This document shows positions 1,890 through 16,683 of a stretch of DNA of 32,000 nt, piece by piece. A program made the position numbers and the translations under genes. Origin of the DNA: Desulfobulbus propionicus DSM 2032 (GTDB lineage: Bacteria > Desulfobacterota > Desulfobulbia > Desulfobulbales > Desulfobulbaceae); contig NC_014972.1 in NCBI RefSeq assembly GCF_000186885.1, positions 210,001-242,000 of the forward strand, read 5' to 3'. Numbering within the stretch: the first letter of the stretch is position 1; every line of letters starts with the position of its first letter. Below the pieces are notes generated by a model. That model was not told the origin of the DNA and made no database searches. It worked only from the letters and a program-made list of their open reading frames with translations.

Positions 1890-2155
1890 TCGTCCTGCTC
1901 GTCCTGGTTCGTCTTTTTTCGTCCTGTTTGATTTTTCTTAATGATTCTTATAGGATGATGTATTTAGTATGACGTAGGATGAAATATGTGACGTGCGCGC
2001 ATGGAAAAAATTGCCAACCATGGTTCATGAAAAATTTCCGTGTGCGCGCCCGCGACTCTCATCCTGTCGTCCTGTTTTCGGTTTTTTTGTTTTCATCTCA
2101 ATAGATTGCGTCATCAGGACGAGCCAAGATGAACTAGGATGAGGCAGGATGAGGC
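1890..2155. repeat. Iteron cluster, a putative replication origin next to the primase gene
   Basis: About 11 copies of AGGAYGA and its complement TCRTCCT lie here. TCGTCCTG occurs at 1890-1897, 1899-1906 and 1919-1926, with variant TCGTCTT at 1909-1915. TCATCCTG is at 2059-2066 and TCGTCCTG at 2067-2074. AGGATGA starts at 1952, 1976, 2136 and 2146, and AGGACGA at 2116. The clusters flank a perfect palindrome AACCATGGTT (2016-2025) bracketed by GTGCGCGC repeats. Confidence 0.5.
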
Positions 2156-3750
2156 GGTTGGTCATCGCGCAACATCTCCCTGGAAAGCTCTGGATGGTAC
2201 AAAACTCCGCGTACATAAATCTTGCCGCCTCGTTTTTCTAGGGTATAGCCCCGCTCGCGCATGGCCTTGGCCAGCGTCCGGTTGGCCGGCGCCTTTTTCG
2301 GATCGCCTTGGTTGAGGCCCCACCACCAGAGAAAGCATTGATAGAGGCCCTGAAAGCCGATTTCCCGGTCCGGATCGTCGGGTGAGGGCAGCAGGCTGTC
2401 GTTGAGGAACTCGGTCAGATAGTCTTCGGCATTTGCCAGCTCTGCAGCCGAGTCCAGAATCTCCTGGGGTGGATCCAGGCCGCGTTGCTGCCACTCCAGG
2501 CAGCCCTCGACCAGCCATTTGAGGATGCCCTCCCGGTTCTGCATCAACCGGTCCTTGAGGTGCTTGTCCTTCTTGCGGAATCGGTCCGCCATGGGCGGGA
2601 ATTTTTTGGCCTCCGCCTCCGGATCGTCGACATAGGCCCAGGGAAAATCGATCTTGAGCAGCCGTTGCACCAGGCTGAACTCGGATCCCATGCCCACCGG
2701 CATGTGGTTGGTGTGGAGGCAGAGGGTGTGGGTGGGATCGAAAACAAACATTTTGCCGAAGTTTGGGCGGCACTCGACCTTGTCGTCACCGGTCAGCCCT
2801 TTGACCTGGCCGGCGTCGATCCGCTGGCCGCGTTTGGATTCACCGGCCACCACCAGCCGCTTGCCGTGCAGGGCATATTTGTGCTCGCTGGCCGCGTTGG
2901 GTGAGGGATCAAACCGCTGTTCCGTAATCATCGACGGACTGATCACGTGGTAATACGGCCCGAGAACTGAGCCGATACAGGAAAACAGCACCCCCTTGCC
3001 GTTACGGCCGCCGCCGATGAACACCGCAATGTATTGCTCGTAGCTGTGACCGGTGAGGGCGTAGCCGAAAAATCGTTTGAGAAAGTTGGCCACCGCTTCC
3101 GATCCGCAGACCTCCACCACGAATTTGTGCCAGTCGGTGTAGTCGGCGTCTTTGAGGTAGTTCACGTCGATGGCCTTGGTCATCAGGTCCGCCGGATCGC
3201 CATCCAGGAGCACGCCTGCGGTGAGATCAATTACCCCGTTGCCGCAGGGAAGCCGCATCGGTTGCCGGTCCAGCTCCAGCTCGCGGCAGGCCATGCTCTT
3301 TTCCACCACCGGTGCCCAGACTAGCGCCTTCTTGGCACCGTTCTCGGTGCGTAGCCGGTCGACCCGCTTCCGGTACCGCTTTGCCAGGTCAAGCACCTTG
3401 TCGGCCTGTTCCTTGTTGCCCTTTTCTTCCAGCTTTTCGGCCTCGGCGAACAGATCCAGGGCCCGTTGCTCATACTGGAGGGCCACCGCCTCGACCGCCT
3501 TGAATGAGTCCTTGAAATCATCAGGCTCCCAGACGATCCCTGTCCAGCGCAACCAGGCCCCGTCTTTCGGAGTGGTGTTGAACAAAAACCGTCCCTTGTG
3601 CAAGGTGGCGTACAGCACCCCGTCGCCGCGTTCGTTGGCATCCAGGCAACTCCGGACGAAGTCATCCTCCAGGTCCATCAACCGGTCGTCTTCCTGCTCC
3701 AGCTCCCGGGCGCGATCGATCACCTTGCCCGCCATGCTTTCCCCTGCCAT
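2134..3750 (-). CDS. Phage/plasmid primase, P4 family (D5-like NTPase C-terminal domain)
   Basis: The 538-aa ORF has the Walker A context VFIGGGRNGKGVLFSCIGSVLGPYY and ...GKRLVVAGESKRG..., typical of the P4-family primase C-terminal domain. GGAGG lies upstream of the ATG. Confidence 0.9.
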   Translation of the reverse strand: MAGESMAGKVIDRARELEQEDDRLMDLEDDFVRSCLDANERGDGVLYATLHKGRFLFNTTPKDGAWLRWTGIVWEPDDFKDSFKAVEAVALQYEQRALDLFAEAEKLEEKGNKEQADKVLDLAKRYRKRVDRLRTENGAKKALVWAPVVEKSMACRELELDRQPMRLPCGNGVIDLTAGVLLDGDPADLMTKAIDVNYLKDADYTDWHKFVVEVCGSEAVANFLKRFFGYALTGHSYEQYIAVFIGGGRNGKGVLFSCIGSVLGPYYHVISPSMITEQRFDPSPNAASEHKYALHGKRLVVAGESKRGQRIDAGQVKGLTGDDKVECRPNFGKMFVFDPTHTLCLHTNHMPVGMGSEFSLVQRLLKIDFPWAYVDDPEAEAKKFPPMADRFRKKDKHLKDRLMQNREGILKWLVEGCLEWQQRGLDPPQEILDSAAELANAEDYLTEFLNDSLLPSPDDPDREIGFQGLYQCFLWWWGLNQGDPKKAPANRTLAKAMRERGYTLEKRGGKIYVRGVLYHPELSREMLRDDQPPHPASS

Positions 3751-6207: not shown

Positions 6208-6308
6208 GTAATGAAATGCATCAAAAAATCTGCTGCACGATATGCTGATGCACGATGAGTTCATGCTTGCTCCTTGGTGGCTGTTAAAAATTCAACAAAC
6301 AAACCGAA

Positions 6309-6554: not shown

Positions 6555-6715
6555 CTGTGAAAACCACTCACACAACAGGAACTTATCTTCCAAGGTGAAT
6601 CCAACTTCATCGAGAAACAGGGAAAACGGGTGGTTGAGCCATTTCTTCAATTTTTGTTCGTTCATGCGGCATCCTTGGGGGCTGCTTCGGGGAAAACTTC
6701 ACAAAACTGTGATTT

Positions 6716-7087: not shown

Positions 7088-7164
7088 CCGTTCTTCTTCA
7101 GATATCCAGGGGGGCGGTTTTGGCGATGCGTTTGGTGAAAAGACCTCTCGACGGTTGAGGAGTT

Positions 7165-7374
7165 TCATGCCGCCTCCTTGGTGGTTGCTTCGGGGAAGAC
7201 TTCGTTGATTGGCTTGCCGATGGCGTCGGCGATAGCTTTCCGGATGCGGAGCGATTTCGTTTGCCCATGGATGCATCGTGATACTGCGGCGTGTGTCACG
7301 CCCAGTGTTGACGCTATATCGATAACCTTGATGCCGCTGTCCGCCATGTGCTGGCGTAATATGTAACCTTTCAT
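7165..7374 (-). CDS. Ner/Cro-like helix-turn-helix (HTH) DNA-binding protein
   Basis: In this 69-aa protein, ...VIDIASTLGVTHAAVSRCIHGQTKSLRIRKAIADAIGKPINEVFP resembles Ner/Nlp-family regulators. It is divergent from a CI-like repressor gene. Confidence 0.8.
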   Translation of the reverse strand: MKGYILRQHMADSGIKVIDIASTLGVTHAAVSRCIHGQTKSLRIRKAIADAIGKPINEVFPEATTKEAA

Positions 7375-7950: not shown

Positions 7951-8613
7951 ATGACCCCAAGAATAATAGCAGTAGCGCTCGCAACCTACGCTGCATTCGC
8001 ACTCAACCCTTCAAGCGCATTCCCTCACCCAGGTGGCCTTGATAGTAGTGGTTGCCACCACAACAGGAAAACAGGTGATTACCATTGCCACAGACCCGGG
8101 AGCACCAGCAGTGGCGGTTATTCAGAGCAATCTCCAGACAACTATTATACGCCAAGTGAACGGAAGAAAAGCGGTGGGTATACCGCCAAATCATATACGG
8201 GTAATAATGAAGCCCAGGTGGTTGGCATCACGGATGGAGATACCATCAAGGTTCTCATCGAGGGACAGCAGGTCAAAATCAGGCTCTACGGAATAGATGC
8301 CCCAGAAAGCGGCCAAGCTTATGGTCGCAAGTCGCAAACCGCTCTGAAACAAATATCGGCAGGGCGAAAAATATCCATCAAGGCCATTGACCACGACCGC
8401 TACGGTCGTGTTGTGGCCTTGGTGTATGCCGACGGGATAAATGTTAACGAAATTATGGCATCTTCAGGTTATGCCTGGGTTTATCCTCAATATTGCAAAA
8501 AGTCATTTTGTCGAGAATGGAAAGAAAAAGAACGCATGGCCCGAACAAATAGAAACGGGTTATGGCAAGACGGTGATCCTACACCGCCATGGGAATGGAG
8601 AAGAAAGAGGTGA
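7951..8613 (+). CDS. Secreted thermonuclease (staphylococcal nuclease/SNase family)
   Basis: It has an N-terminal signal-like peptide (MTPRIIAVALATYAAFALNPSSA) and a His/Cys-rich segment (GCHHNRKTGDYHCH). The SNase core reads VVGITDGDTIKVL...IRLYGIDAPESGQAYG...DRYGRVVALVYADGINVNEIM..GYAWVY. Confidence 0.9.
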   Translation: MTPRIIAVALATYAAFALNPSSAFPHPGGLDSSGCHHNRKTGDYHCHRPGSTSSGGYSEQSPDNYYTPSERKKSGGYTAKSYTGNNEAQVVGITDGDTIKVLIEGQQVKIRLYGIDAPESGQAYGRKSQTALKQISAGRKISIKAIDHDRYGRVVALVYADGINVNEIMASSGYAWVYPQYCKKSFCREWKEKERMARTNRNGLWQDGDPTPPWEWRRKR

Positions 8614-9350
8614 GTGAATTTAGCGAACAAAATTCATCGTGCCCGAAATGTGGAGCTCCCAGGAAGAGTGGCCCGGAATGCCCTGCATGCGGAGTGATTT
8701 ATGCAAAGGCCGAACAGGATGCCTTTGCCAAACGAAAAAAAATGGATGAAGCCAGGAGAAAGGCGGATGCCATTATTAGAAACATGCAGAGTGAAAAGCA
8801 GTCCGGAGCAAACCTCATCGATTGCCCAACATGTGGTCGTTCTGTATCAAAGAATGCTCCCACTTGTCCCAATTGCGGGGAGATCATTAACAAAGCTGCT
8901 GTTGTTGCTGCTCAGCCGATAAATAAGGCCCCGCTCGTTGGATATATCGGTTCGGCTATCATGGCTGCGGGAGTATTTTGCCCCCTGGTTAGTATACCTA
9001 TTGCCGGATCTATTAATTATTTCAAAAACGGGGAGGGCGACGGCACCTTTCTGCTATTTCTTGCCGCCATTTCTGCGGCCGCTATTTTTTGGAATCGATT
9101 CAAGATCCTCGTTGTCACCGGAGGGGCTTCTATTGCCATCCTTGCTTTTGACTTGTGGAATTTTTTTCACAAAATGTCTCTGTCCAAGGCGGACATGCAA
9201 AGGGAGATGGCCGGAAATCCCTTTGGTGGGCTGGCCGAGGCGGCCATGCAATCCATCCAGTTGCAATGGGGGTGGGGTGTCATGTTCACAGGGGCGGTGA
9301 TGTTGATTGTTGCGTGGTTTCTGGCTCAAAGGGAATATAAGTACAAATAG
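8589..9350 (+). CDS. Membrane protein with two N-terminal zinc-ribbon motifs
   Basis: CPKCG...CPACG and CPTCG...CPNCG motifs are followed by several hydrophobic segments (IGSAIMAAGVFCPLV, FLLFLAAISAAAIFW, ILVVTGGASIAILAF, VMFTGAVMLIVAWFL). It overlaps the nuclease gene's 3' end by 25 nt. Confidence 0.7.
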   Translation: MGMEKKEVSEFSEQNSSCPKCGAPRKSGPECPACGVIYAKAEQDAFAKRKKMDEARRKADAIIRNMQSEKQSGANLIDCPTCGRSVSKNAPTCPNCGEIINKAAVVAAQPINKAPLVGYIGSAIMAAGVFCPLVSIPIAGSINYFKNGEGDGTFLLFLAAISAAAIFWNRFKILVVTGGASIAILAFDLWNFFHKMSLSKADMQREMAGNPFGGLAEAAMQSIQLQWGWGVMFTGAVMLIVAWFLAQREYKYK

Positions 9351-9412
9351 GTACGCGGGAGTGGGAGAACAGGGTGCTATATAGCCAACCACTGCTAATG
9401 GTAATCGTTTAT

Positions 9413-9490
9413 TTTGATGGGATATTCCGAGGCATGATACCTAATTTTCAACAATAACAATCTGGCGGACAAGCCGCAGATGTTCACGTT
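9413..9490 (+). repeat. Copy 1 of a roughly 75-bp direct repeat containing an imperfect hairpin
   Basis: ...CATGATACCTAATTTTCAACAATAACAATCTGGCGGACAAGCCGCAGATGTTCACGTT aligns with 10426-10500. The hairpin core is 9461-9480. Confidence 0.7.
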
Positions 9491-9696
9491 GGACCTTAAA
9501 TTTTCTTTCAAAAGATGTGGTACATTCACTATCCCCGTTTAGTTTGTGCGTATCGAAATATTATCCATAAATCAAATGATTATGGTTGCTGAGTTGGTAG
9601 TTGTAATGTCTGGCCTGTGGATGAAGTGATGAGAATTGCTTAAGTAGTCTCTTGCTAACGATTGACAATAGTATCGGAGCTCGTTACGGTGTATGC

Positions 9697-9978
9697 ATGA
9701 TAGAAAGTTTTGCATGTGGTGAAACTGAAAAAATTTGGAACAACGTGTTCTCCAAAAAGCTTCCAGGGGATATTCAGACCGTCGCTCGGCGGAAGCTGAT
9801 TATGCTCAACGCGGCAGCAACTTTAGACGATCTAAGAATACCGCCCAGGAATATGCTAGAAAAACTTTCTGGGGACAGGGATGGGCAGTACTCAATCAGG
9901 ATTAACCAGCAATGGCGAGTATGCTTCTGTTTTGAGCACGGAGTAGCAACTCAGGTAATGATTGTCGATTATCACTAA
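9697..9978 (+). CDS. higB: HigB-type toxin (RelE/ParE superfamily, plasmid-killer family)
   Basis: MIESFACGETEKIW...AATLDDLRIPPRNMLEKLSGDRDGQYSIRINQQWRVCFCFEHG.A..V.IVDYH is the HigB signature. The internal ATG at 9697 is used. Confidence 0.9.
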   Translation: MIESFACGETEKIWNNVFSKKLPGDIQTVARRKLIMLNAAATLDDLRIPPRNMLEKLSGDRDGQYSIRINQQWRVCFCFEHGVATQVMIVDYH

Positions 9979-9990
9979 GAGGTCAAGGGT

Positions 9991-10326
9991 ATGGTAAATT
10001 TAATACCGCTAGAGCATCCGGGCGTGATACTCTTCGAAGAATTCATTGAACCGTTAGGGCTAACGGCTTACAAAGTAGCAAAGGACATTGATATTCCCCA
10101 AACCGCGCTTGGCGAAATCATTAAAGGTAAAAGAGGAATATCCGCACAAGTAGGCCTGAAGTTGTCTAAATACTTCGGAATGTCTGAAGAGTTTTTTGTC
10201 AAAATTCAGATGCGATATGACATCGACAGGACGAAAGTTGCTCAACATGAGTCTTTAGGGAAAATCATTCCCTTCCGCCCAAAGCCTAAAGAGCCTCCAG
10301 CGATTGAGAATCTTAAGGAGGCTTAA
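9991..10326 (+). CDS. higA: HigA antitoxin (XRE-family HTH)
   Basis: HPGVILFEEFIEPLGLTAYKVAKDIDIPQTALGEIIKGKRGISAQVGLKLSKYFGMSEEFF is typical of HigA. The gene lies 12 nt downstream of higB. Confidence 0.9.
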   Translation: MVNLIPLEHPGVILFEEFIEPLGLTAYKVAKDIDIPQTALGEIIKGKRGISAQVGLKLSKYFGMSEEFFVKIQMRYDIDRTKVAQHESLGKIIPFRPKPKEPPAIENLKEA

Positions 10327-10352
10327 TTGTCTTTCCATAACGAAAAATCATA

Positions 10353-10390
10353 AACTCCAACATGTCAGTGCGGCATATTGGAGTTTTTTT
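10353..10390 (+). terminator. Rho-independent terminator after higA
   Basis: AACTCCAA (10353-10360) pairs with TTGGAGTT (10378-10385), followed by a T5 run. Confidence 0.65.
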
Positions 10391-10425
10391 AATCCTTTTC
10401 AAATATTTTTTAGCAAATTATGTGC

Positions 10426-10500
10426 TTTGAAGGATTCGGGGGGACATGATACTAAATTCCAACAATAACATCCTACGGACAAGCTGTAGATGTTCGCGTT
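10426..10500 (+). repeat. Copy 2 of the roughly 75-bp direct repeat with hairpin
   Basis: ...CATGATACTAAATTCCAACAATAACATCCTACGGACAAGCTGTAGATGTTCGCGTT. The hairpin core is 10471-10490, with one fully compensatory pair change relative to copy 1. Confidence 0.7.
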
Positions 10501-10949
10501 TTCAGGTCATATATCTCCAGTCAGTCATGACTTATTGGAAAAGTATTAACCATCGGGAATTGAATCTTTCCCGCTATTTTATACCGAAACAGCCTTTTTG
10601 TAGACTTAATGGAAGGATATCCGATTTCTGGTTATCACCCCAAATTGCATGATATCCAGTTAGCTAATACCATAAAACGCCGATTTCCTGACACCCTGGT
10701 TTGAAATAGTGAGTGATAGCCAGAAACCATATAATAACTTGTTAAACGTAAATAAAATGATTGAACCATCCATGCAAGAATGTGTATATAAAGATATTCC
10801 TTTAGGAGGAAGGCGGGTGCCCTTAGGATCCAGTGTAATATCTGGAGAGATGGACGGCAGGAAGATAAAGCTTATTGCTGCCGAATGTAGCGACTTACTT
10901 TTACGTGGTTGTACCCGTGAAGCCCAGCGCAATGCGTTGGGCTTTTTTT
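10501..10949 (+). ncRNA. Candidate structured non-coding RNA or leader upstream of the RT (5' end undefined)
   Basis: No ORF here has an ATG plus SD. Hairpins are at 10615-10621/10651-10657, 10792-10798/10837-10843 and 10855-10860/10878-10883, plus a terminal 10-bp stem with a T-run at 10921-10949. This matches the position of the ncRNA in retron/DRT-type RT systems. Confidence 0.4.
10921..10949 (+). terminator. Intrinsic terminator-like hairpin 13 nt upstream of the RT start codon
   Basis: AGCCCAGCGC (10921-10930), loop AAT, GCGTTGGGCT (10934-10943). That gives 10 bp with one G.U pair, followed by six more T (10944-10949). Confidence 0.65.
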
Positions 10950-10961
10950 ATTGATGGGGGA

Positions 10962-12458
10962 ATGAGCTTGGAAAAAGATCTTATTAAAACAATTGGTGAA
11001 GAGGCGAAAAAGCTGTCTCAGAGGCATCACGCTTATCACAATACACTAGAGCTGGAGCATATAAGAAAAAGTAATAGGGTTTCTAACCCTGGAGACAAAG
11101 AGTTAAAAATACCAGCGTATTGGTCATCGGAAAAGAAGTTCAACCCGTTTTACGTCCATAAAAATCGTCGTCAAATCGCTCATTCAATTGCAAAAAAAAT
11201 ACAAAATGGGACCTATGAACCAAACCCTCCGCAAAAAATGGAAATTCCAAAAGCATCGGGTGGTTCAAGGACCGTAACTATTTACCAAATACCAGATGCT
11301 GCTGTATCCACATTAATTTATCAGCAACTTCTCTCAAAAAACAAACATCGTTTCAGTTCTTTTTCGTATGCTTATCGAAATGACAGAAATGTACATTTTG
11401 CAATTCAAGATATCGCAATTGAACTGAAAGAGCTATCTAGAGTTTTTGTCGCTGAATTTGATTTTTCGAAATTCTTTGATTCAATTAATCACTCTTATCT
11501 CTATCGTCAATTCAATGAAAATGGTTTTTTCATCAGCGAAAGAGAGGATAGCGTGATCAAGTCATTTCTCAAAAGCAAAAATGTTGGCATACCACAAGGC
11601 ACATCAATTTCTCTTTTTTTAGCGAATATTGTTTGTTGGAAATTAGACAAGGGGCTTGAACAGGTAGGATTGAAGTTTGCGCGATATGCTGATGATACTG
11701 TTATTTGGTCGCATGATTACCAAAAAATAAGCATGGCATATGATATCATAAGTAATTTCTCAAAAGAAGCTGGAGTCGAGATTAATGCCAAAAAATCAGA
11801 TGGGATTAGCTTGCTATGCAGGAAAGATATGCCTTCTGAGCTTGCACAACGTAAGGAAGAAATTGACTTTCTTGGTTACTCTATTTCAGTAGATAACGTT
11901 TCAATTAAAAAATCTTCAGTAAATAAAATAAAACGACAAATAAGTTATACATTATACAAGCATCTAATAAAACCGTTGCGCGGAAACAAGCTAGTTGCCA
12001 TCAAAATACCAGCAAACAACAAAGACACACATTTGTTGAGCGCAATATTAGAAATAAGAAGATACCTTTATGGCAACCTAAATGACCAAATGATAGCAAA
12101 TTATTTGAATGGAAAAAGTAATAGAATTTTTTTCAAAGGAATAATGAGTTTTTATCCGCTCATAAACAATGAACAACAACTCAAAGAGCTTGATGGGTGG
12201 TTAGTGACAGCAATTTTCAAAGCCATACGTATAAGGTCGAAACTACTAAAGAAATGGAATTTTAACAGAGACAATAGTTTTCCCTTTAATATACCTCATA
12301 AAGATCTCACGACAGCGTTTAAACAACAAAAAGTAAAAGGGAAAAAATTACTCCAAATTCCAAGTTTCTTCACAATATACAAAGCTCTCAAGAAAGGGGT
12401 TACTGACAAAGGTATAGCAGGGGTAATGAATCCAACATCAAATGGCTATAATTATTAA
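10962..12458 (+). CDS. Reverse transcriptase, defence-associated type (unclassified UG/Abi- or retron-like)
   Basis: RT motifs are present: EIPKASGGSRTVTIYQIPDAAV, SYAYRNDR, FDFSKFFDSINH, GIPQGTSISLFLANI, and RYADDTVIW (YADD at 11685-11696). A C-terminal extension of about 170 aa has no recognisable domain. The start is set at the ATG at 10962 (MSLEKD...) rather than the track start at 10875, which lies inside the hairpins. Confidence 0.9.
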   Translation: MSLEKDLIKTIGEEAKKLSQRHHAYHNTLELEHIRKSNRVSNPGDKELKIPAYWSSEKKFNPFYVHKNRRQIAHSIAKKIQNGTYEPNPPQKMEIPKASGGSRTVTIYQIPDAAVSTLIYQQLLSKNKHRFSSFSYAYRNDRNVHFAIQDIAIELKELSRVFVAEFDFSKFFDSINHSYLYRQFNENGFFISEREDSVIKSFLKSKNVGIPQGTSISLFLANIVCWKLDKGLEQVGLKFARYADDTVIWSHDYQKISMAYDIISNFSKEAGVEINAKKSDGISLLCRKDMPSELAQRKEEIDFLGYSISVDNVSIKKSSVNKIKRQISYTLYKHLIKPLRGNKLVAIKIPANNKDTHLLSAILEIRRYLYGNLNDQMIANYLNGKSNRIFFKGIMSFYPLINNEQQLKELDGWLVTAIFKAIRIRSKLLKKWNFNRDNSFPFNIPHKDLTTAFKQQKVKGKKLLQIPSFFTIYKALKKGVTDKGIAGVMNPTSNGYNY

Positions 12459-12565
12459 TAATAATTGTCTAGCAAATGCATTAACGCAGACGGGGATAAC
12501 GCTGGCGGCGCTAGGGCGGTCAAGTTCATTGGCCCGCTGGTTGTGCTAGCCGTTGGCTTAGCAAA

Positions 12566-13393
12566 ATGAAAGAAAATAGAATACTTCGCGACGTCGAGAA
12601 ATACGTCAAATCGTATTTGAATACACATGTCACTTCTCCCTGCGTACAGATGCTTCGCAACGACCCTCACTGTCACCTTCGGGTCGTGAGCATTCTTTCC
12701 CGTGTTCGCTACCTGTCTGAGCAAATCCTTCGCTACGGTTGTGAGGTAGACAAGGCCCATCTCAGTAGTCTATCGCGAGATGAGCTCGAACGACGGGTTC
12801 AAGTGTTGACAGACTTTATTGAAAGTGAAAATACCGAAACAAATCACGAAGCCAACGGTTATCTAATGACAGGCAGTTCCCAGAAGCATCTCATCGCGTA
12901 TGTTTCGCGCGAGTTCAACTGGGTCATTGTCTCGATCATGTCGGCTTCCTATATCAGTGCGCTTGTCCTCACGAGATCAGTGTTCGAACTTTTGGTCGGC
13001 GTGGCTACGCGAATGGAAGGTGGAATGAAGGATCGTGTGGACAAAATCACATTTCTTGAAGCAAGTGAACGTAAGCAGATTCTGAAGCTCTGGAATCGAC
13101 TTTGCGGATGGGGGCACCCATACGGTCGCTGGGTCAAAGAAATATGCCCCATATATATTCAACATGAGCCATTTTTTCATAGCCGCCTTTGTGGCCTCTG
13201 TCTGGATGAGTTATGCAACGTGCTAGATCTCTATGCTGTCACGGCACTATCCAAATACGAGATTCCCATTGACCCCCAGTGCTTGCCAATGCAAGACCCA
13301 ACAGGGATACTGGCTGGTCTTGGCATGCTCTCAAGACGACTGGAAAATGGAAACACTAAAAAGGCCAACAAGCCGGATGCAGACGACGGCTGA
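12566..13393 (+). CDS. Hypothetical protein (275 aa) with a possible HEPN-like Rx5H motif
   Basis: A clean ORF co-directional with the RT. The helical-looking core ...YISALVLTRSVFELLVGVATR...KQILKLWNRLCGWGHPYGRW contains R178-x5-H184 (nt 13097-13117). No family is recognised with certainty. Confidence 0.7.
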   Translation: MKENRILRDVEKYVKSYLNTHVTSPCVQMLRNDPHCHLRVVSILSRVRYLSEQILRYGCEVDKAHLSSLSRDELERRVQVLTDFIESENTETNHEANGYLMTGSSQKHLIAYVSREFNWVIVSIMSASYISALVLTRSVFELLVGVATRMEGGMKDRVDKITFLEASERKQILKLWNRLCGWGHPYGRWVKEICPIYIQHEPFFHSRLCGLCLDELCNVLDLYAVTALSKYEIPIDPQCLPMQDPTGILAGLGMLSRRLENGNTKKANKPDADDG

Positions 13394-13434
13394 TAGCCGC
13401 GCCTGATCCGCAACGTTTAGACCCCACAGCACCC

Positions 13435-15120
13435 ATGTCCGACGATCAAACTGACGAACAACACGCCTACGAGGCGCTACTCCAGCGTCGACTGCAGATC
13501 CTAAAGAAGCAGTTCGATGCCGGGAAGGTCCATATCGCCGAGGGGCTCCAGGTGATCGGGAGCCTCAAGCGCGTCAGGTACGCCGCTGACGGCACGGTCG
13601 ATCTATCAACAGTGGACGGCCTAGTGCGCTCGATGGCGCTTGCTGTCGAGGCGATGCACGACAGAGAGGAGATGAAGGACTCTGCGTCTCTCGCGCAGAT
13701 TCAGACCGAGTACTTCGACTTTTTGGAGAAGAACTTCGGTCACTTCTTCAAGGTCATGGTCGAACGCGGTCTCACCCCGCACAACGCAGGACGAGCACTT
13801 TCCAGGACTTCATCCACCGTCGCAGAGTTGACCCGAAACCTCCCTGAGTTCTTGGCTGCAATCGAGGGCTACTGGAGTGCCGCAGGCCCAATAGCGATTG
13901 CGCATGTGGAGGACATGCACGACGCACTTAAGGGCGTATTCGGAGGCGACTTGTTTCCATCGCCTGAGGAGAATATCGCTTCAAAGTGCTCGCTCTACAC
14001 AGACACACTCGTGCTGCCTGATCCATTCTTGCGCACGAAGCACATGTTCGAGCGACTCGGAGATGAGAGGAAAGCGTACTACCTCATCAAGCACGCTCTG
14101 AATCTGTTGCAGTACCGTAATCTTGCGTGTGCCGACGTGAGCCCGCCCATCGTCGTAGTGCTACCCGATGTCTCTGCTCTGGAAACGGAAGAGAAGGAGT
14201 TCTTCTATCGGCTCGGGCAGGATGACGCCCTCATTCACGGCGCTCGCGTCTTCGGGAGGCGATTCGAGACCTTTGACGAGCTCTTGGAGTTCTGTCAGCA
14301 ACTAGACACCATCGAGCGAGCTGTGGCAGCAGTTTCCGAGCCTGAGCGAGTTCTGTTTGATACGGAGTGGGAAGGCTCACTCCCGGAGCAGTTGAAACGG
14401 GCCACAAAGATGGAGGCGTACTCCGCCGTCGTTGGTACCACCAATCCTGGCGTCATCCTGGCGTCGCAGGCCCTGGGGCGCATGAGCACTAGCAATGAAC
14501 TCCTGATCAAGGCTCGTCGCCTTCGTGGCACTCCGATTATCGATGCTCCAACGTCATGGCAGTACTTCGTGTGGAAACTTGAGTACGACTCTTTTCAATC
14601 CGGTGAAGCAGAAGGGCTGCGTGACCTTCACACGGTGCGTGGATTGCAGACTCTTGCTGCGAACGAGATGCGATGGCTGGGCAGAGTGCCCCCGGAAGCC
14701 CTAATCGAGGTGCGCAAGGCTGGTGCGCTGGGGGAAGTTCGCGCAATCCTCGGAAAGGGAGTGGAGGAACTGGCCACGGTCAATCCCTCGAATTTCCACA
14801 GAACAAGCGACCTCGTCTTCGACAACATTCATGCAGCCTTTGCAAAGCATCAGGAGAACATGGATGCACTGGCGGCGAAGAAGTGGAAGTTCGCGGGGAG
14901 CGACATCGGATCGTGGATAGTAGTTGGGTCTTTGGCGGCAACGGCTGCCGCGACCGGCACACCAGCTTGGGGACTCGCCGCTCTGGCAGCCGATCAGTTG
15001 CTGAAAGCGCCCAAATTACGTGAGATACCGAAATCGATCAAGGCGCTGGCAAAGGAAAGTCAACAACTGAAGCGATCGCCGGTTGGCCTGCTCTTCAAGT
15101 ACAGCAAGAGAGGGGGCTAA
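13435..15120 (+). CDS. Hypothetical protein (561 aa) with a C-terminal hydrophobic hairpin
   Basis: A long clean ORF starting 41 nt after the previous gene. I can see no NTPase motif. The C-terminal GSDIGSWIVVGSLAATAAATGTPAWGLAALAADQLL (nt 14896-15003) could form two short membrane helices. Confidence 0.75.
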   Translation: MSDDQTDEQHAYEALLQRRLQILKKQFDAGKVHIAEGLQVIGSLKRVRYAADGTVDLSTVDGLVRSMALAVEAMHDREEMKDSASLAQIQTEYFDFLEKNFGHFFKVMVERGLTPHNAGRALSRTSSTVAELTRNLPEFLAAIEGYWSAAGPIAIAHVEDMHDALKGVFGGDLFPSPEENIASKCSLYTDTLVLPDPFLRTKHMFERLGDERKAYYLIKHALNLLQYRNLACADVSPPIVVVLPDVSALETEEKEFFYRLGQDDALIHGARVFGRRFETFDELLEFCQQLDTIERAVAAVSEPERVLFDTEWEGSLPEQLKRATKMEAYSAVVGTTNPGVILASQALGRMSTSNELLIKARRLRGTPIIDAPTSWQYFVWKLEYDSFQSGEAEGLRDLHTVRGLQTLAANEMRWLGRVPPEALIEVRKAGALGEVRAILGKGVEELATVNPSNFHRTSDLVFDNIHAAFAKHQENMDALAAKKWKFAGSDIGSWIVVGSLAATAAATGTPAWGLAALAADQLLKAPKLREIPKSIKALAKESQQLKRSPVGLLFKYSKRGG

Positions 15121-15240
15121 CCCCTCGCTCGAGCCGACCCGCTACGGCGTGCAGCTCAACTCGAACGTTAGGAGTCACGATATCTCCTGTAAATAGTGAC
15201 TTCAACAATCCCTATCCTTTCTCTTGATTATTGGATTAAA

Positions 15241-16275
15241 ATGAGTGTTCGCCCCCATCCCACCAAATCAAAAAGTGAACCTGGGAAATGGTGGGTCATT
15301 GATATCGGTCGGGGCAACCAGCGGGAGCGCATCACCTTTAACGGTTCGTACGAAGAGGCCTGGAGGTATGAGCGATCCATACGGCAGCAACCCGACCACT
15401 TGGTTGAGGGATCCGCTCCCAAAATAAAGGATGTGGTGACCTTATTCCTTGAATGGTACCGGACGGAGAATTCCATTAACACGGTCAATGATATGCGGTT
15501 TTGTCTCGATAATCATATCATTCCTTGGTTCGGTAATTTCCAGCCGAAACAGTTGACCATCGCTCTGTTCAATAAATTCAAGGCGGATTTGCTTGAACGA
15601 GGTTTGGCACCTGTCACAATCAACAAGAATATGAGTTACCTTTCCAGCCTGTTGAAATGGGCTTCGGAGCACGGATACTGCCAGCCGTTGGCATTCACCA
15701 TTCCCAGGTTTTCAAAAAAGAAAACAACAGCCGAACCGGTTCAGCCGTTGACCCGGCGGCAACTGGATGCGCTGTATGAATGCCTGGATCCAGAGTATCG
15801 GCTGCTTTTTCTGTTGATGGCGGACCATGGTCTCCGGAAGGAAGAGGCCCTGAATCTGCAGGTTGAAGATATCGACGAAGCGCGAAAGACGATCCGGGTT
15901 TATGGGAAGGGGAGTAAGTACAGAATCGTTCCTTTTCTGTCCGTCAGGTTTGAAGAGGAACTGAACAAAGTCCTTTCGGAACGGCTTGAAGGCTTCCTGG
16001 TCGTCAATCCGGCAACCGGAAAACCGTATTATTCAATTAGGAAGGTGTTAACCCGGGCAGCGAAAAAGGCGGGATTAAGCCGGCAGGTGTACCACCACCT
16101 GCTGCGCCATACTTTTGGATCCCTGGCGGCCGAGGCCGGGATGAACCCTTACGCGTTGCAACGGATCATGGGACACAGCAATATAGAGACAACGAACAAG
16201 ATCTACACCCATGTCGGCCTCGATTTCGTCGGTGAAGAGGCCCGTAAAATTCGTGAGCAAGGGGTAGGGCAGTGA
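15241..16275 (+). CDS. int: Tyrosine recombinase / phage integrase
   Basis: The C-terminal catalytic region reads ...LRKEEALNL..., HHLLRHTFGSLAAEAGMNPYALQRIMGHSNIETTNKIYTHV (R...HxxR...H...Y). The ATG at 15241 is preferred. It is adjacent to the tRNA-fragment att site. Confidence 0.9.
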   Translation: MSVRPHPTKSKSEPGKWWVIDIGRGNQRERITFNGSYEEAWRYERSIRQQPDHLVEGSAPKIKDVVTLFLEWYRTENSINTVNDMRFCLDNHIIPWFGNFQPKQLTIALFNKFKADLLERGLAPVTINKNMSYLSSLLKWASEHGYCQPLAFTIPRFSKKKTTAEPVQPLTRRQLDALYECLDPEYRLLFLLMADHGLRKEEALNLQVEDIDEARKTIRVYGKGSKYRIVPFLSVRFEEELNKVLSERLEGFLVVNPATGKPYYSIRKVLTRAAKKAGLSRQVYHHLLRHTFGSLAAEAGMNPYALQRIMGHSNIETTNKIYTHVGLDFVGEEARKIREQGVGQ

Positions 16276-16436: not shown

Positions 16437-16591
16437 GTTGATTTTTACCTATGGTTGGCATAGCTTTGCCCTAACGATTTTGCCACCGGTTGCTCCTTCG
16501 TAAGACTTGCCGACAATGATTTTGAACGGCAAAAGAGTTCTGACGCGTTCTTACAGCTCTGCGAGGCAATCTTTCCACCTCAATTGTGCGT

Positions 16592-16683
16592 ATTCCGGAG
16601 TAAGCCGGCCACTGATTCCGTTTCAAGTCGGCCGGGTATTCCGGTTGAAAGCGGCCACTGATTCCGGTCGACAGGCCACCTCA
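16592..16683. repeat. Four tandem 23-bp units (also readable as two 46-bp units)
   Basis: Units start with ATTCCG(G) at 16592, 16615, 16638 and 16661. GGCCACTGATTCCG is repeated exactly at 16607-16620 and 16653-16666, and GTATTCCGG at 16590-16598 and 16636-16644. Confidence 0.7.

Follow-up and report, generated by a model that had tools for sequence, protein, structure and literature searches.

A DRT9 (UG28) reverse transcriptase and its template RNA among independent cargo genes of Desulfobulbus propionicus

DRT9 is a bacterial reverse transcriptase (RT) system with a two-component architecture, and its mechanism has been worked out (Nature 2025, PMC12483538; see also EMBO J 2025, PMC12489045). 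The characterised system needs only the RT together with a non-coding RNA (ncRNA), both in vivo and in vitro (PMC12483538). In SenDRT9 of Salmonella enterica, a universally conserved U-tract of the ncRNA templates poly-dA, and the C-terminal tyrosines Y496 and Y498 of the RT are the protein primers (PMC12483538). The phage factors involved in the E. coli model are a 3′-end-binding protein and raised dATP via the phage ribonucleotide reductase. DRT2 (UG2) and DRT10 (UG17), both class 2 UG/Abi systems, likewise combine an upstream structured ncRNA with an RT and carry the template beside a scaffold stem. DRT10 shares protein priming with DRT9 but produces tandem repeats and depends on a SLATT effector, whereas the DRT2 product is a concatenated gene-encoding cDNA.

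A 32,000 nt stretch of the Desulfobulbus propionicus genome (hereafter, the window) contains an RT gene which a first-pass annotation took for the core of an undescribed DRT/retron-like type, with two downstream genes as effectors. We find that positions 10742–12552 very probably constitute a canonical, self-contained, two-component DRT9 (UG28) anti-phage system, with the anti-phage role assigned by homology. This interpretation follows from the family membership of the RT, from the covariation and template of the ncRNA, and from the independence of both from their neighbours. Features of the locus are listed in Table 1.

Table 1. Predicted features of the DRT9 locus and the adjoining cargo genes (window coordinates).
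Feature	Position	Strand	Basis or remark
DRT9 module as inserted block, 1,811 bp, GC 36.5%	10742–12552	+	Comparison with contig L028
Putative sigma-70 promoter of ncRNA/RT transcript	10761–10790	+	TTGAAC (10761–10766), spacer of ~18 nt, TATATA (10785–10790)
DRT9 ncRNA, about 154 nt	10797–10950	+	Leave-one-out covariance model, covariation, minimum free energy
ncRNA SL1	10797–10811	+	
ncRNA long-range stem	10813–10820 paired with 10911–10918	+	
ncRNA inner hairpins	10829–10846, 10855–10883	+	
ncRNA template loop	10884–10910	+	
Conserved template motif ACUUACUUUUAC	10893–10904	+	U4 at 10899–10902, predicted poly-dA template
ncRNA terminator hairpin, then U-tract	10919–10945	+	Strong intrinsic terminator
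DRT9 (UG28) RT, 498 aa	10962–12458	+	PADLOC Drt9 profile, PDB alignment
ORF275 (Despr_0234), 275 aa, independent cargo gene	12566–13393	+	Outside DRT9 system
ORF561, 561 aa, independent, widely mobile cargo gene	13435–15120	+	Outside DRT9 system
Tyrosine recombinase (Xer/phage-integrase type), bounds cargo region	15196–16275	+	Pfam Phage_integrase, E = 1.6e-27

The RT gene encodes 498 aa and matches Pfam RVT_1, with the YADD motif at 11685–11696 as first annotated. Against PADLOC, the Drt9 profile matched at E = 3.5e-216 over profile positions 2–487 of 488, whilst all other RT models gave 1.2e-37 or weaker (RT_UG17, 3.4e-30; Drt2, 7.6e-26). A phmmer search of the PDB recovered the DRT9 RT structures (9ioa, 9iob, 9nlv, 9nlx, 9vku and 9vma; E = 1.2e-192), aligning residues 1–498 with 1–498, and identity to the cryo-EM-solved DRT9 RT (9nlx/9ioa) was 57% across this length. 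The catalytic YADD (Y242-A-D-D245, residues 242–245) is invariant in the pairwise alignment with the solved enzyme. Also invariant are the two tyrosines of the C-terminus (...SNGYNY), Y496 (codon 12447–12449) and Y498 (12453–12455), which align with SenRT Y496 and Y498. The full-length UG28/DRT9 match takes in both regions peculiar to the family, the N-terminal extension and the C-terminal domain. What had been read as an unrecognisable C-terminal extension of ~170 aa is the normal DRT9 thumb and tail, each of its residues aligning with one of the solved enzyme. By sequence, the protein thus sits squarely in the DRT9/UG28 clade over its whole length. A longer, TTG-initiated ORF (10875–12458, 527 aa) was rejected as the start of the RT, both for its overlap with the ncRNA and because SenRT residue 1 has its counterpart in the ATG at 10962.

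Group II intron and retron models also gave matches of a generic, RT-domain kind, as expected were this a retron, Abi-type or group II intron RT. However, these lie 170–190 orders of magnitude below the Drt9 match and are confined to the palm and fingers; retron RT models scored 5e-22 or weaker, and the group II intron RT/maturase model TIGR04416 reached 156.5 bits (cut-off 300). Moreover, a maturase or endonuclease domain is absent, Rfam searching of the window found neither a group II intron nor a retron msr, no co-occurrence of the RT with the two genes behind it was seen in other DRT9 loci, and it is the DRT9 ncRNA model that the RNA ahead of the RT matches. Membership of any of these other RT classes can be virtually discounted.

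The ncRNA was identified with a leave-one-out covariance model (R1) built solely from 20 other DRT9 loci. A single match was found in the window (10786–10954), which was full length and scored 89.8 bits (E = 2.3e-19). Compensatory changes were present in 19 of 23 pairs, and RNAalifold returned them for 11 of its 14 ncRNA pairs. Paired cells made up 88.7% of the total, compared with 43–52% in slid controls, a value reached by none of 500 shuffles. The minimum free energy was −58.6 kcal/mol (z = −3.78). The motif ACUUACUUUUAC, also given as ACTTACTTTTAC, occurs (with up to 3 mismatches) in all 21 related loci for which upstream sequence exists, 60–157 nt 5′ of the RT start; in our alignment (A2) its columns show little or no variation. 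With this match and that of the RT to DRT9, the supposed new type resolves into a described one. Across the whole window no Rfam family reached its gathering score, and permissive searching yielded only chance-level, terminator-driven matches.

The ncRNA accounts for only part of the structured leader of ~450 nt that had been annotated ahead of the RT. The remainder, 10327–10741, consists of repeated intergenic elements which also lie beside unrelated genes in the window and on other contigs, and which are absent from other DRT9 loci. Small ORFs (54–90 aa) in 10304–10954 yielded no coding evidence and overlap either these repeats or the ncRNA. The promoter in Table 1 is a tentative assignment from sequence; the site was not listed by a consensus promoter scan, and a −10-like box lies 7–9 nt 5′ of the first stem-loop in most other DRT9 loci. 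The strong terminator noted in the leader is indeed present, and the ncRNA 3′ end is 11 nt from the RT ATG. With the terminator directly 5′ of the RT start, expression of the RT is predicted to need read-through, an arrangement conserved in the family.

The resemblance to SenDRT9 (9NLX, 9NLV, 9IOA; PMC12483538 and PMC12489045) extends over both components. The RT is 498 aa here and the solved chain 499 residues, with the YADD, Y496/Y498 and the N-terminal extension all kept and no accessory gene required. In both systems the ncRNA lies immediately upstream and comprises SL1, a long-range stem and, at its end, a hairpin with a U-tract, and the U4 template occupies the loop just ahead (5′) of the long-range stem's 3′ strand. 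A homopolymeric U-tract as template is the DRT9 pattern and sets the locus apart from DRT2 and DRT10. The ncRNA is somewhat shorter than that of SenDRT9, with the U4 at ~103–106 from the inferred 5′ end compared with U123–126. The host also differs, being an anaerobic, sulfate-reducing member of the Desulfobacterota and not an enterobacterium.

By analogy with SenDRT9, the RT would bind its own ncRNA and assemble into an oligomer that the RNA stabilises (hexameric in SenDRT9), and the hydroxyl of a C-terminal tyrosine (Y496/Y498) would serve as primer. The UUUU would be copied repeatedly, with slippage and realignment, into kilobase-long poly-dA that stays covalently joined to the RT. In uninfected cells a host 3′–5′ exonuclease would remove this product; upon infection, phage factors would allow it to build up, leading to growth arrest or abortive infection. 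Protein-primed poly-dA synthesis, the hexameric complex and abortive infection are carried over to this locus from SenDRT9 and PsaDRT9, and counterparts of the factors known from E. coli (ExoI/SbcB, T5 gp58, NrdAB) may be absent in Desulfobulbus.

The two ORFs downstream of the RT, of 275 and 561 aa, are real, conserved and co-directional genes. It had been proposed that they act as effectors of the RT and ncRNA in a three-gene DRT/retron-like system. Their orientation and tight spacing (107 nt and 41 nt intergenic) favour such an arrangement, as does the fact that neither protein belongs to a known family. Both have, moreover, something of a defence flavour, given the Avs1c-like segment of ORF561 and the weak DUF4145/HEPN-like matches of ORF275. 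However, when 22 other DRT9 loci were compared, tblastn found no homologue of either protein within 6 kb on either side, and clustering of the neighbours within 3.5 kb gave no family common to more than 2 of the 22. Conversely, 12 loci with ORF275 or ORF561 homologues contained neither an RT nor the DRT9 ncRNA. The two families differ in size by more than 20-fold (39 vs >860 homologues), GC content steps from 34% through 48% to 57% over the three genes (0.344, 0.482 and 0.571 for RT, ORF275 and ORF561, respectively), and near-identical ORF275 and ORF561 blocks occur elsewhere beside other neighbours. Characterised DRT9, furthermore, requires only RT and ncRNA. The three-gene model is accordingly highly improbable. 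Since co-occurrence is lacking in either direction and the three genes differ in composition, ORF275 and ORF561 are, judged from their sequences and distribution, unrelated cargo merely adjoining DRT9 and not effectors of the RT.

The same data bear on a second possibility, namely that a DRT9 core has recruited ORF561 locally to act at the membrane, much as the SLATT effector does in DRT10 and the SLATT proteins now and then linked to DRT9 may do. ORF561 ends in a hydrophobic, helical C-terminus, and a SLATT protein is reported to be ‘occasionally’ linked to DRT9. Against this, neither SLATT nor any other Pfam match (E ≤ 0.01) was found in ORF561 or ORF275, no neighbour recurs in the 22 loci, ORF275 sits between ORF561 and the RT, and the C-terminal part of the ORF561 model is of low confidence. 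ORF561 homologues are singletons without an RT in prophage, ICE-like, plasmid and chromosomal contexts. Recruitment of this kind is very unlikely, and we retain the two-component DRT9 interpretation.

ORF275, an exact match (100% identity) to D. propionicus Despr_0234, and ORF561 returned nothing above cut-offs in sequence searches of Pfam, PADLOC, NCBIfam and the PDB, nor did Foldseek searches of either model against the PDB and BFVD give a match with E ≤ 0.001. The AlphaFold2 model of ORF275 is all-alpha (pLDDT 89). Its best Foldseek hints were to HEPN-type proteins (1wol and the AbiA C-terminal domain; probability 0.6 or lower), and weak DUF4145 matches were found in 19 of the 39 family members, so that ORF275 may be described, weakly, as DUF4145/HEPN-like. 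Its homologues occur without an RT and without ORF561, and relatives elsewhere adjoin TIR, caspase, Mrr and AbiU2 genes.

The ORF561 family is far larger, with more than 860 homologues and 765 clusters at 50% identity, and is both very widely distributed and strongly conserved. Those contexts that were examined include an ICE-like region, a prophage, a site beside mfd/NosR and plasmids, and contained neither an RT nor ORF275. Avs1c matches were found in 45 of 46 family members; for ORF561 itself NF041811 gave E = 4.9e-8, which is under its curated cut-off, and the N-terminal segment (~residues 18–68) appears Avs1c-like. Two hydrophobic helices lie towards the C-terminus (about residues 490–525). 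The overall pLDDT is 70, and the best Foldseek hints were to cyclodipeptide synthases (probability 0.6 or lower). N-terminally extended relatives (about 740–840 aa) carry no Pfam domain.

Comparison with other contigs shows how these genes are arranged as blocks. The DRT9 block starts with TTAAAC after a G and ends with ...GCTAGCCG before TTGGCT. On contig L028, the same upstream element (...ATAATAACTTA) is joined directly to TTGGCTTAGCAAAATG, the start of an ORF275 homologue, with no DRT9 between the two; the arrangement resembles an ‘empty site’ into which DRT9 has not been inserted. The adjoining block, 12553–13417, is 89% identical to the same contig. The next, 13412–15199, shares 98% nucleotide identity with contig L034, where the upstream genes differ, and the homology extends 25 nt past the putative crossover.

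All of these genes belong to a cargo region lying between a D5_N/DUF5906 primase-helicase and the tyrosine recombinase. Its genes (SNase, Zn-ribbon protein, HigBA, DRT9, ORF275 and ORF561) form a series; they are compact and co-directional and differ in composition. The recombinase, the only one, is downstream of the cargo genes and co-directional with them. Within this variable region, which the integrase bounds, ORF275, ORF561, the HigBA genes and the remaining small genes have built up as separate cargo modules. The first-pass view holds in so far as the RT is a defence RT that stands alone, beside its ncRNA, and lies in variable cargo next to an integrase. Such a layout resembles the defence hotspots beside satellite and prophage integrases and integron cassette arrays (bioRxiv 10.1101/2024.07.02.601719), with blocks exchangeable between contigs.

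An integron array has an IntI-type integrase with an adjacent attI, and each of its cassettes ends in an attC hairpin (R''-L''...L'-R') with crossover at G|TT. In the present region G|TT marks several of the junctions (G|TTAAAC, G|TTGGCT and GTT(T)AGAC). A hairpin resembling attC, GGCTAAC...GTTAGGA, is present at 15113–15174 (z = −2.55), and the TTAGAC at the start of the ORF561 block is complementary to GTCTAAC/GGCTAAC at its own 3′ end. However, the recombinase is not IntI, scoring 76.9 bits with TIGR02249 (cut-off 265) and 43.9 with NF011946 (cut-off 435). No attC-type folding was found in two of the three inter-cassette spacers (12456–12565 and 13385–13440), and a crude attC scan detected neither an oriented attC-like array nor a + strand excess. 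An integron was thus not adopted as the explanation of the gene mosaic. A broader proposal is that the region is a shuffling array of autonomous defence cassettes exchanged at G|TT without a canonical integron integrase, ORF561 and/or ORF275 being undescribed single-gene anti-phage systems; this we consider rather unlikely, if conceivable.

From raw sequence, the locus had the appearance of a new multi-gene RT defence system, yet it is a standard DRT9 that can be annotated with existing HMMs (PADLOC Drt9). The RT falls in a characterised class and its presumed partners did not co-occur with it in any of the other loci compared; the misleading cue was gene adjacency inside a cargo region. The locus extends the DRT9 architecture to an anaerobic Desulfobacterota host, with conservation of both priming tyrosines, of the U4 template and of the way the ncRNA folds, and it provides a 22-locus ncRNA alignment and a covariance model for a family missing from Rfam 15. 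The sole residual novelty lies in the ORF561-like and ORF275-like genes, conserved orphan families that move independently, as blocks, among neighbourhoods rich in defence genes.

The reverse transcriptase (RT) locus is a canonical two-component DRT9 system adjoining unrelated cargo genes. The 498-aa ORF that the first-pass annotation had read as an RT is indeed one, carrying a full RVT_1 domain and the YADD motif at 11685-11696. Its assignment to an undescribed system did not survive profile classification against PADLOC-DB, in which the RT matched the Drt9 model (E=3.5e-216, profile positions 2-487 of 488), the runner-up RT models being generic RT (1e-37), UG17 (3e-30) and Drt3a (2e-28). Among PDB sequences, residues 1-498 aligned with residues 1-498 of the cryo-EM DRT9 RT (9ioa, 9iob, 9nlv, 9nlx, 9vku, 9vma; E=1.2e-192, 57% identity). 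Owing to this end-to-end alignment, the C-terminal extension of about 170 aa, previously regarded as unrecognisable, is identified as the thumb and C-terminal tail usual for DRT9. Its last residues are ...SNGYNY, and Y496 and Y498 align with the priming tyrosines of SenDRT9, the characterised Salmonella enterica system, where two C-terminal tyrosines have been shown to prime DNA synthesis (PMC12483538). A longer TTG-initiated frame from 10875, which overlaps the RNA gene, was rejected as an artefact because ATG 10962 aligns with Met1 of the SenDRT9 RT. The DRT9 (UG28) family, for which PMC12483538 provides a tree of 201 systems, is already known and mechanistically characterised, and this locus adds one member.

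Features of the DRT9 locus and the neighbouring genes (window positions)
Feature	Position	Strand	Remarks
D5_N + DUF5906 primase-helicase	2134-3750	-	domain matches
SNase-like nuclease	7951-8613	+	220 aa, secreted-looking
Zinc-ribbon membrane protein	8589-9350	+	253 aa, C-terminal membrane helices
HigB	9652-9978	+	HigB-like toxin, PF05015
HigA-like antitoxin	9991-10326	+	HTH_3
ncRNA SL1	10797-10811	+	
ncRNA long-range stem	10813-10820 with 10911-10918	+	
ncRNA inner hairpins (two)	10829-10846, 10855-10883	+	
ncRNA single-stranded loop	10884-10910	+	holds UUUU tract 10899-10902
ncRNA terminator hairpin	10919-10945	+	
RT	10962-12458	+	498 aa
ORF275	12566-13393	+	275 aa
ORF561	13435-15120	+	561 aa
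Tyrosine recombinase	15196-16275		follows ORF561

For comparison, 22 loci encoding relatives of the RT (42-76% identity) were taken from one-genome-per-species contigs of Pseudomonas, Ewingella, Morganella, Enterobacter, Methylobacter, Competibacter, Desulfobacteraceae, Sulfurimonas, Roseivirga and others. In 21/21 loci with upstream sequence, the motif ACTTACTTTTAC (up to 3 mismatches) precedes the RT start by 60-157 nt; the window copy (10893-10904) precedes the ATG by 69 nt. From an alignment of the ~160 nt upstream (A2), RNAalifold derived a consensus with a 5′ stem-loop plus a long-range stem, and 11 of the 14 pairs have compensatory double changes. Once the terminal hairpin was added, 19/23 pairs showed changes on both sides, and 88.7% of cells could pair, compared with 43-52% when partners were slid by 1-3 columns; none of 500 shuffles reached the observed values. 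A covariance model (R1), built from an alignment (A7) of 20 other loci only and leaving out the window sequence, returned a single full-length match in the window (10786-10954, plus strand, 89.8 bits, E=2.3e-19), and the window RNA alone folds at -58.6 kcal/mol (z=-3.78). No Rfam family was found in the whole window. Published DRT9 ncRNAs possess conserved stem-loops, a universally conserved U-tract beside a scaffold stem and, at the 3′ end, a stem-loop containing another U-rich stretch (PMC12483538), a description matched by the anatomy of the window RNA, whose ends are predicted at about 10797 and about 10950. The strong terminator noted earlier before the RT corresponds to a GC-rich hairpin of 12 bp and the U-tract after it (10919-10949). 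The proposed structured leader of 450 nt holds for the DRT9 ncRNA, while the rest (10327-10741) lies outside the RNA and is made up of repeat elements. A promoter-like TTGAAC-N18-TATATA ends ~7 nt before SL1, and -10-like boxes occur at equal distance from SL1 in other DRT9 loci; we infer a putative ncRNA promoter here. At the level of sequence, the RT's family membership and residues, the RNA fold and the template are evident at the locus itself.

The 275-aa and 561-aa ORFs downstream (ORF275 and ORF561) are real conserved genes. Five independent lines of evidence stand against their proposed role as partners of the RT. Neither was matched by tblastn in the 22 DRT9 loci (6 kb either side), and when all ORFs (≥80 aa) lying up to 3.5 kb from the RT were clustered all-vs-all, no family was common to more than two loci. 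DRT9 has no conserved neighbour, in agreement with the published architecture of an RT and an upstream ncRNA, joined only occasionally by a SLATT protein; in vitro, RT and ncRNA suffice (PMC12483538). Conversely, no RT or ORF275 homologue was found in the ORF561 contexts examined, no RT or ORF561 near ORF275 homologues, and no match to the DRT9 ncRNA model in 12 loci with homologues of either ORF (137 kb in total). GC content rises in steps from the RT (0.344) through ORF275 (0.482) to ORF561 (0.571). Moreover, the ORF275 block (12553-13417) is 89% identical to the metagenomic contig L028, in which the upstream element, reading ...ATAATAACTTA, runs straight into TTGGCTTAGCAAAATG, which marks the ORF275 start; the window instead has 1,811 bp of DRT9 (10742-12552) between ...ATAATAACTTG and TTGGCTTAGCAAAATG. 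With no DRT9 between its upstream element and TTGGCTTAGCAAAATG, L028 has the appearance of an unoccupied DRT9 insertion site. The ORF561 block (13412-15199) is 98% identical to a second metagenomic contig, L034, where Mrr, HNH and small ORFs lie upstream in place of ORF275. At the nucleotide level, the block structure is modular. In L034 (4252-5936) gene calling splits the ORF561 gene, at 98% nucleotide identity, into two overlapping ORFs (131 + 430 aa = 561), suggesting a frameshift or sequencing error.

ORF275 matches Despr_0234 of Desulfobulbus propionicus DSM 2032 at 100% identity and belongs to a rare family of only 39 homologues, found in Planctomycetes, an archaeal MAG and Desulfobacterota-like contigs. 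Several of these have TIR/TIR-PFK, ThsB-TIR, caspase and Mrr genes (L028) or HEPN_AbiU2 (contigs L029 and L030) as neighbours. Its AF2 model is confident and all-helical (pLDDT 89), with no significant structural neighbour in a Foldseek search. HEPN proteins are among its weak top structural matches, and 19/39 family members have sub-threshold matches to DUF4145, which Pfam places with HEPN-like domains. Invariant motifs of the family are SASYIS...R..FEL and W.HPY..W..E.CP. The ORF561 family is large and tightly conserved (>860 matches, 765 clusters at 50% identity), keeping a length of about 560 aa, and some relatives have an extra N-terminal region of ~200-300 aa without a known domain. Members occur in an ICE-like region of Pseudomonas, immediately ahead of the terminase in a Stenotrophomonas prophage, next to mfd/nosR, on an integrase/IS110 island and on a few plasmids. 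The AF2 model is moderate (residues 1-390 confident, C-terminus poor) and gave no significant structural match with Foldseek; two hydrophobic helices lie in the C-terminus. Residues 18-68 are similar to Avs1c, which in AVAST type 1 is the small third protein, under the cut-off (NF041811, E=4.9e-8), and the PADLOC Avs1c model is matched by 45/46 family members (best 2e-6). Both ORFs could plausibly be stand-alone defence or addiction genes.

Two repeated elements precede the DRT9 block, neither of which was found in other DRT9 loci. One, of ~80 nt (10440-10524), has a further copy upstream of higB (9433-9491) and recurs in L028 (6927-7010, 3028-3060) between unrelated genes and ahead of an Mrr gene. 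Within it are a TTGAAG...GATACT stretch resembling a promoter and a hairpin that is imperfect, though perfect in L028 (GTGAACATTCTGCGG/CCGCAGAATGTTCAC). The other, of ~125 nt, has 19-bp terminal inverted repeats (GATATCCGGTTTCTGGTTATC ... GATATCCGGAAACCGGATAAT) and may represent either a MITE-like element or a site of recombination. Its copies (window ~10616-10741, L028 688-816, L034 3347-3475) are 77-85% identical and lie upstream of three different genes: DRT9, an ORF275 homologue and a 90-aa ORF.

The junction pattern of the mosaic is reminiscent of integron cassettes; defence cassettes are known from integrons (bioRxiv 10.1101/2024.07.02.601719). G|TT is the position of several block junctions (GTTAAAC at 10741, GTTGGCT at 12552, GTTTAGAC at 13415-13417), and the ORF275 and ORF561 blocks each open with six bases complementary to an RYYYAAC-like heptamer near their own 3′ end (GGCCAAC at 13362-13368 and GGCTAAC at 15113-15119, respectively). 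The ORF561 block starts TTAGAC and ends in its GGCTAAC (GTCTAAC in contig L024), from which a ~60-nt hairpin extends to GTTAGGA (15113-15174, z=-2.55 on the bottom strand). Four observations, however, speak against an integron: the recombinase is not IntI, only one of three spacers folds, a crude attC scan gave no oriented array, and the L034 homology runs 25 nt beyond the putative crossover.

GC content is lower from 1 to ~17 kb (0.34-0.60) than in the flanking core at 18-32 kb (0.64). D5_N + DUF5906 primase-helicases are typical of integrative satellites and small mobile elements, and the presence of one, together with the recombinase, in the low-GC stretch suggests that the whole stretch is one integrative element; neither att repeats for it nor a tRNA gene were identified in the window. 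The genes from the SNase-like nuclease to ORF561 (7951-15120), RT included, form a co-directional plus-strand run. The SNase-family gene overlaps the zinc-ribbon gene start by 25 nt, and the two (7951-9350) may be a further two-gene cargo module. The HigB/HigA pair lies directly upstream of the DRT9 region with its own terminator-like hairpin (~10353-10390). A 24-40-nt direct repeat, TTCATGC..CTCCTTGG.GGCTGCTTCGGGGAA, occurs at 6260-6283, 6661-6700 and 7164-7203; its minus-strand reading, RBS + ATG, points to small paralogous genes on that strand. About 300 nt downstream of the recombinase gene, GTATTCCGG..AAGCCGGCCACTGATTCCG is present in three tandem copies (16590-16666, 23-nt spacing), which are possibly repeats of a recombinase arm or att site.

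Enzymology, regulation and phenotype at this locus are inferred by homology with SenDRT9 and PsaDRT9. The RT-ncRNA complex would oligomerise, and a C-terminal tyrosine would prime synthesis; repeated copying of the U4 tract would then yield long poly-dA, which would remain attached to the enzyme. Poly-dA would be held low by a host exonuclease until phage factors allow its accumulation, leading to abortive infection. For E. coli, these factors are T5 gp58, binding 3′ ends, and phage NrdAB, raising dATP supply (PMC12483538); the mechanism is also drawn from PMC12489045. The residual value of the locus lies in its two orphan families and the G|TT junction pattern.
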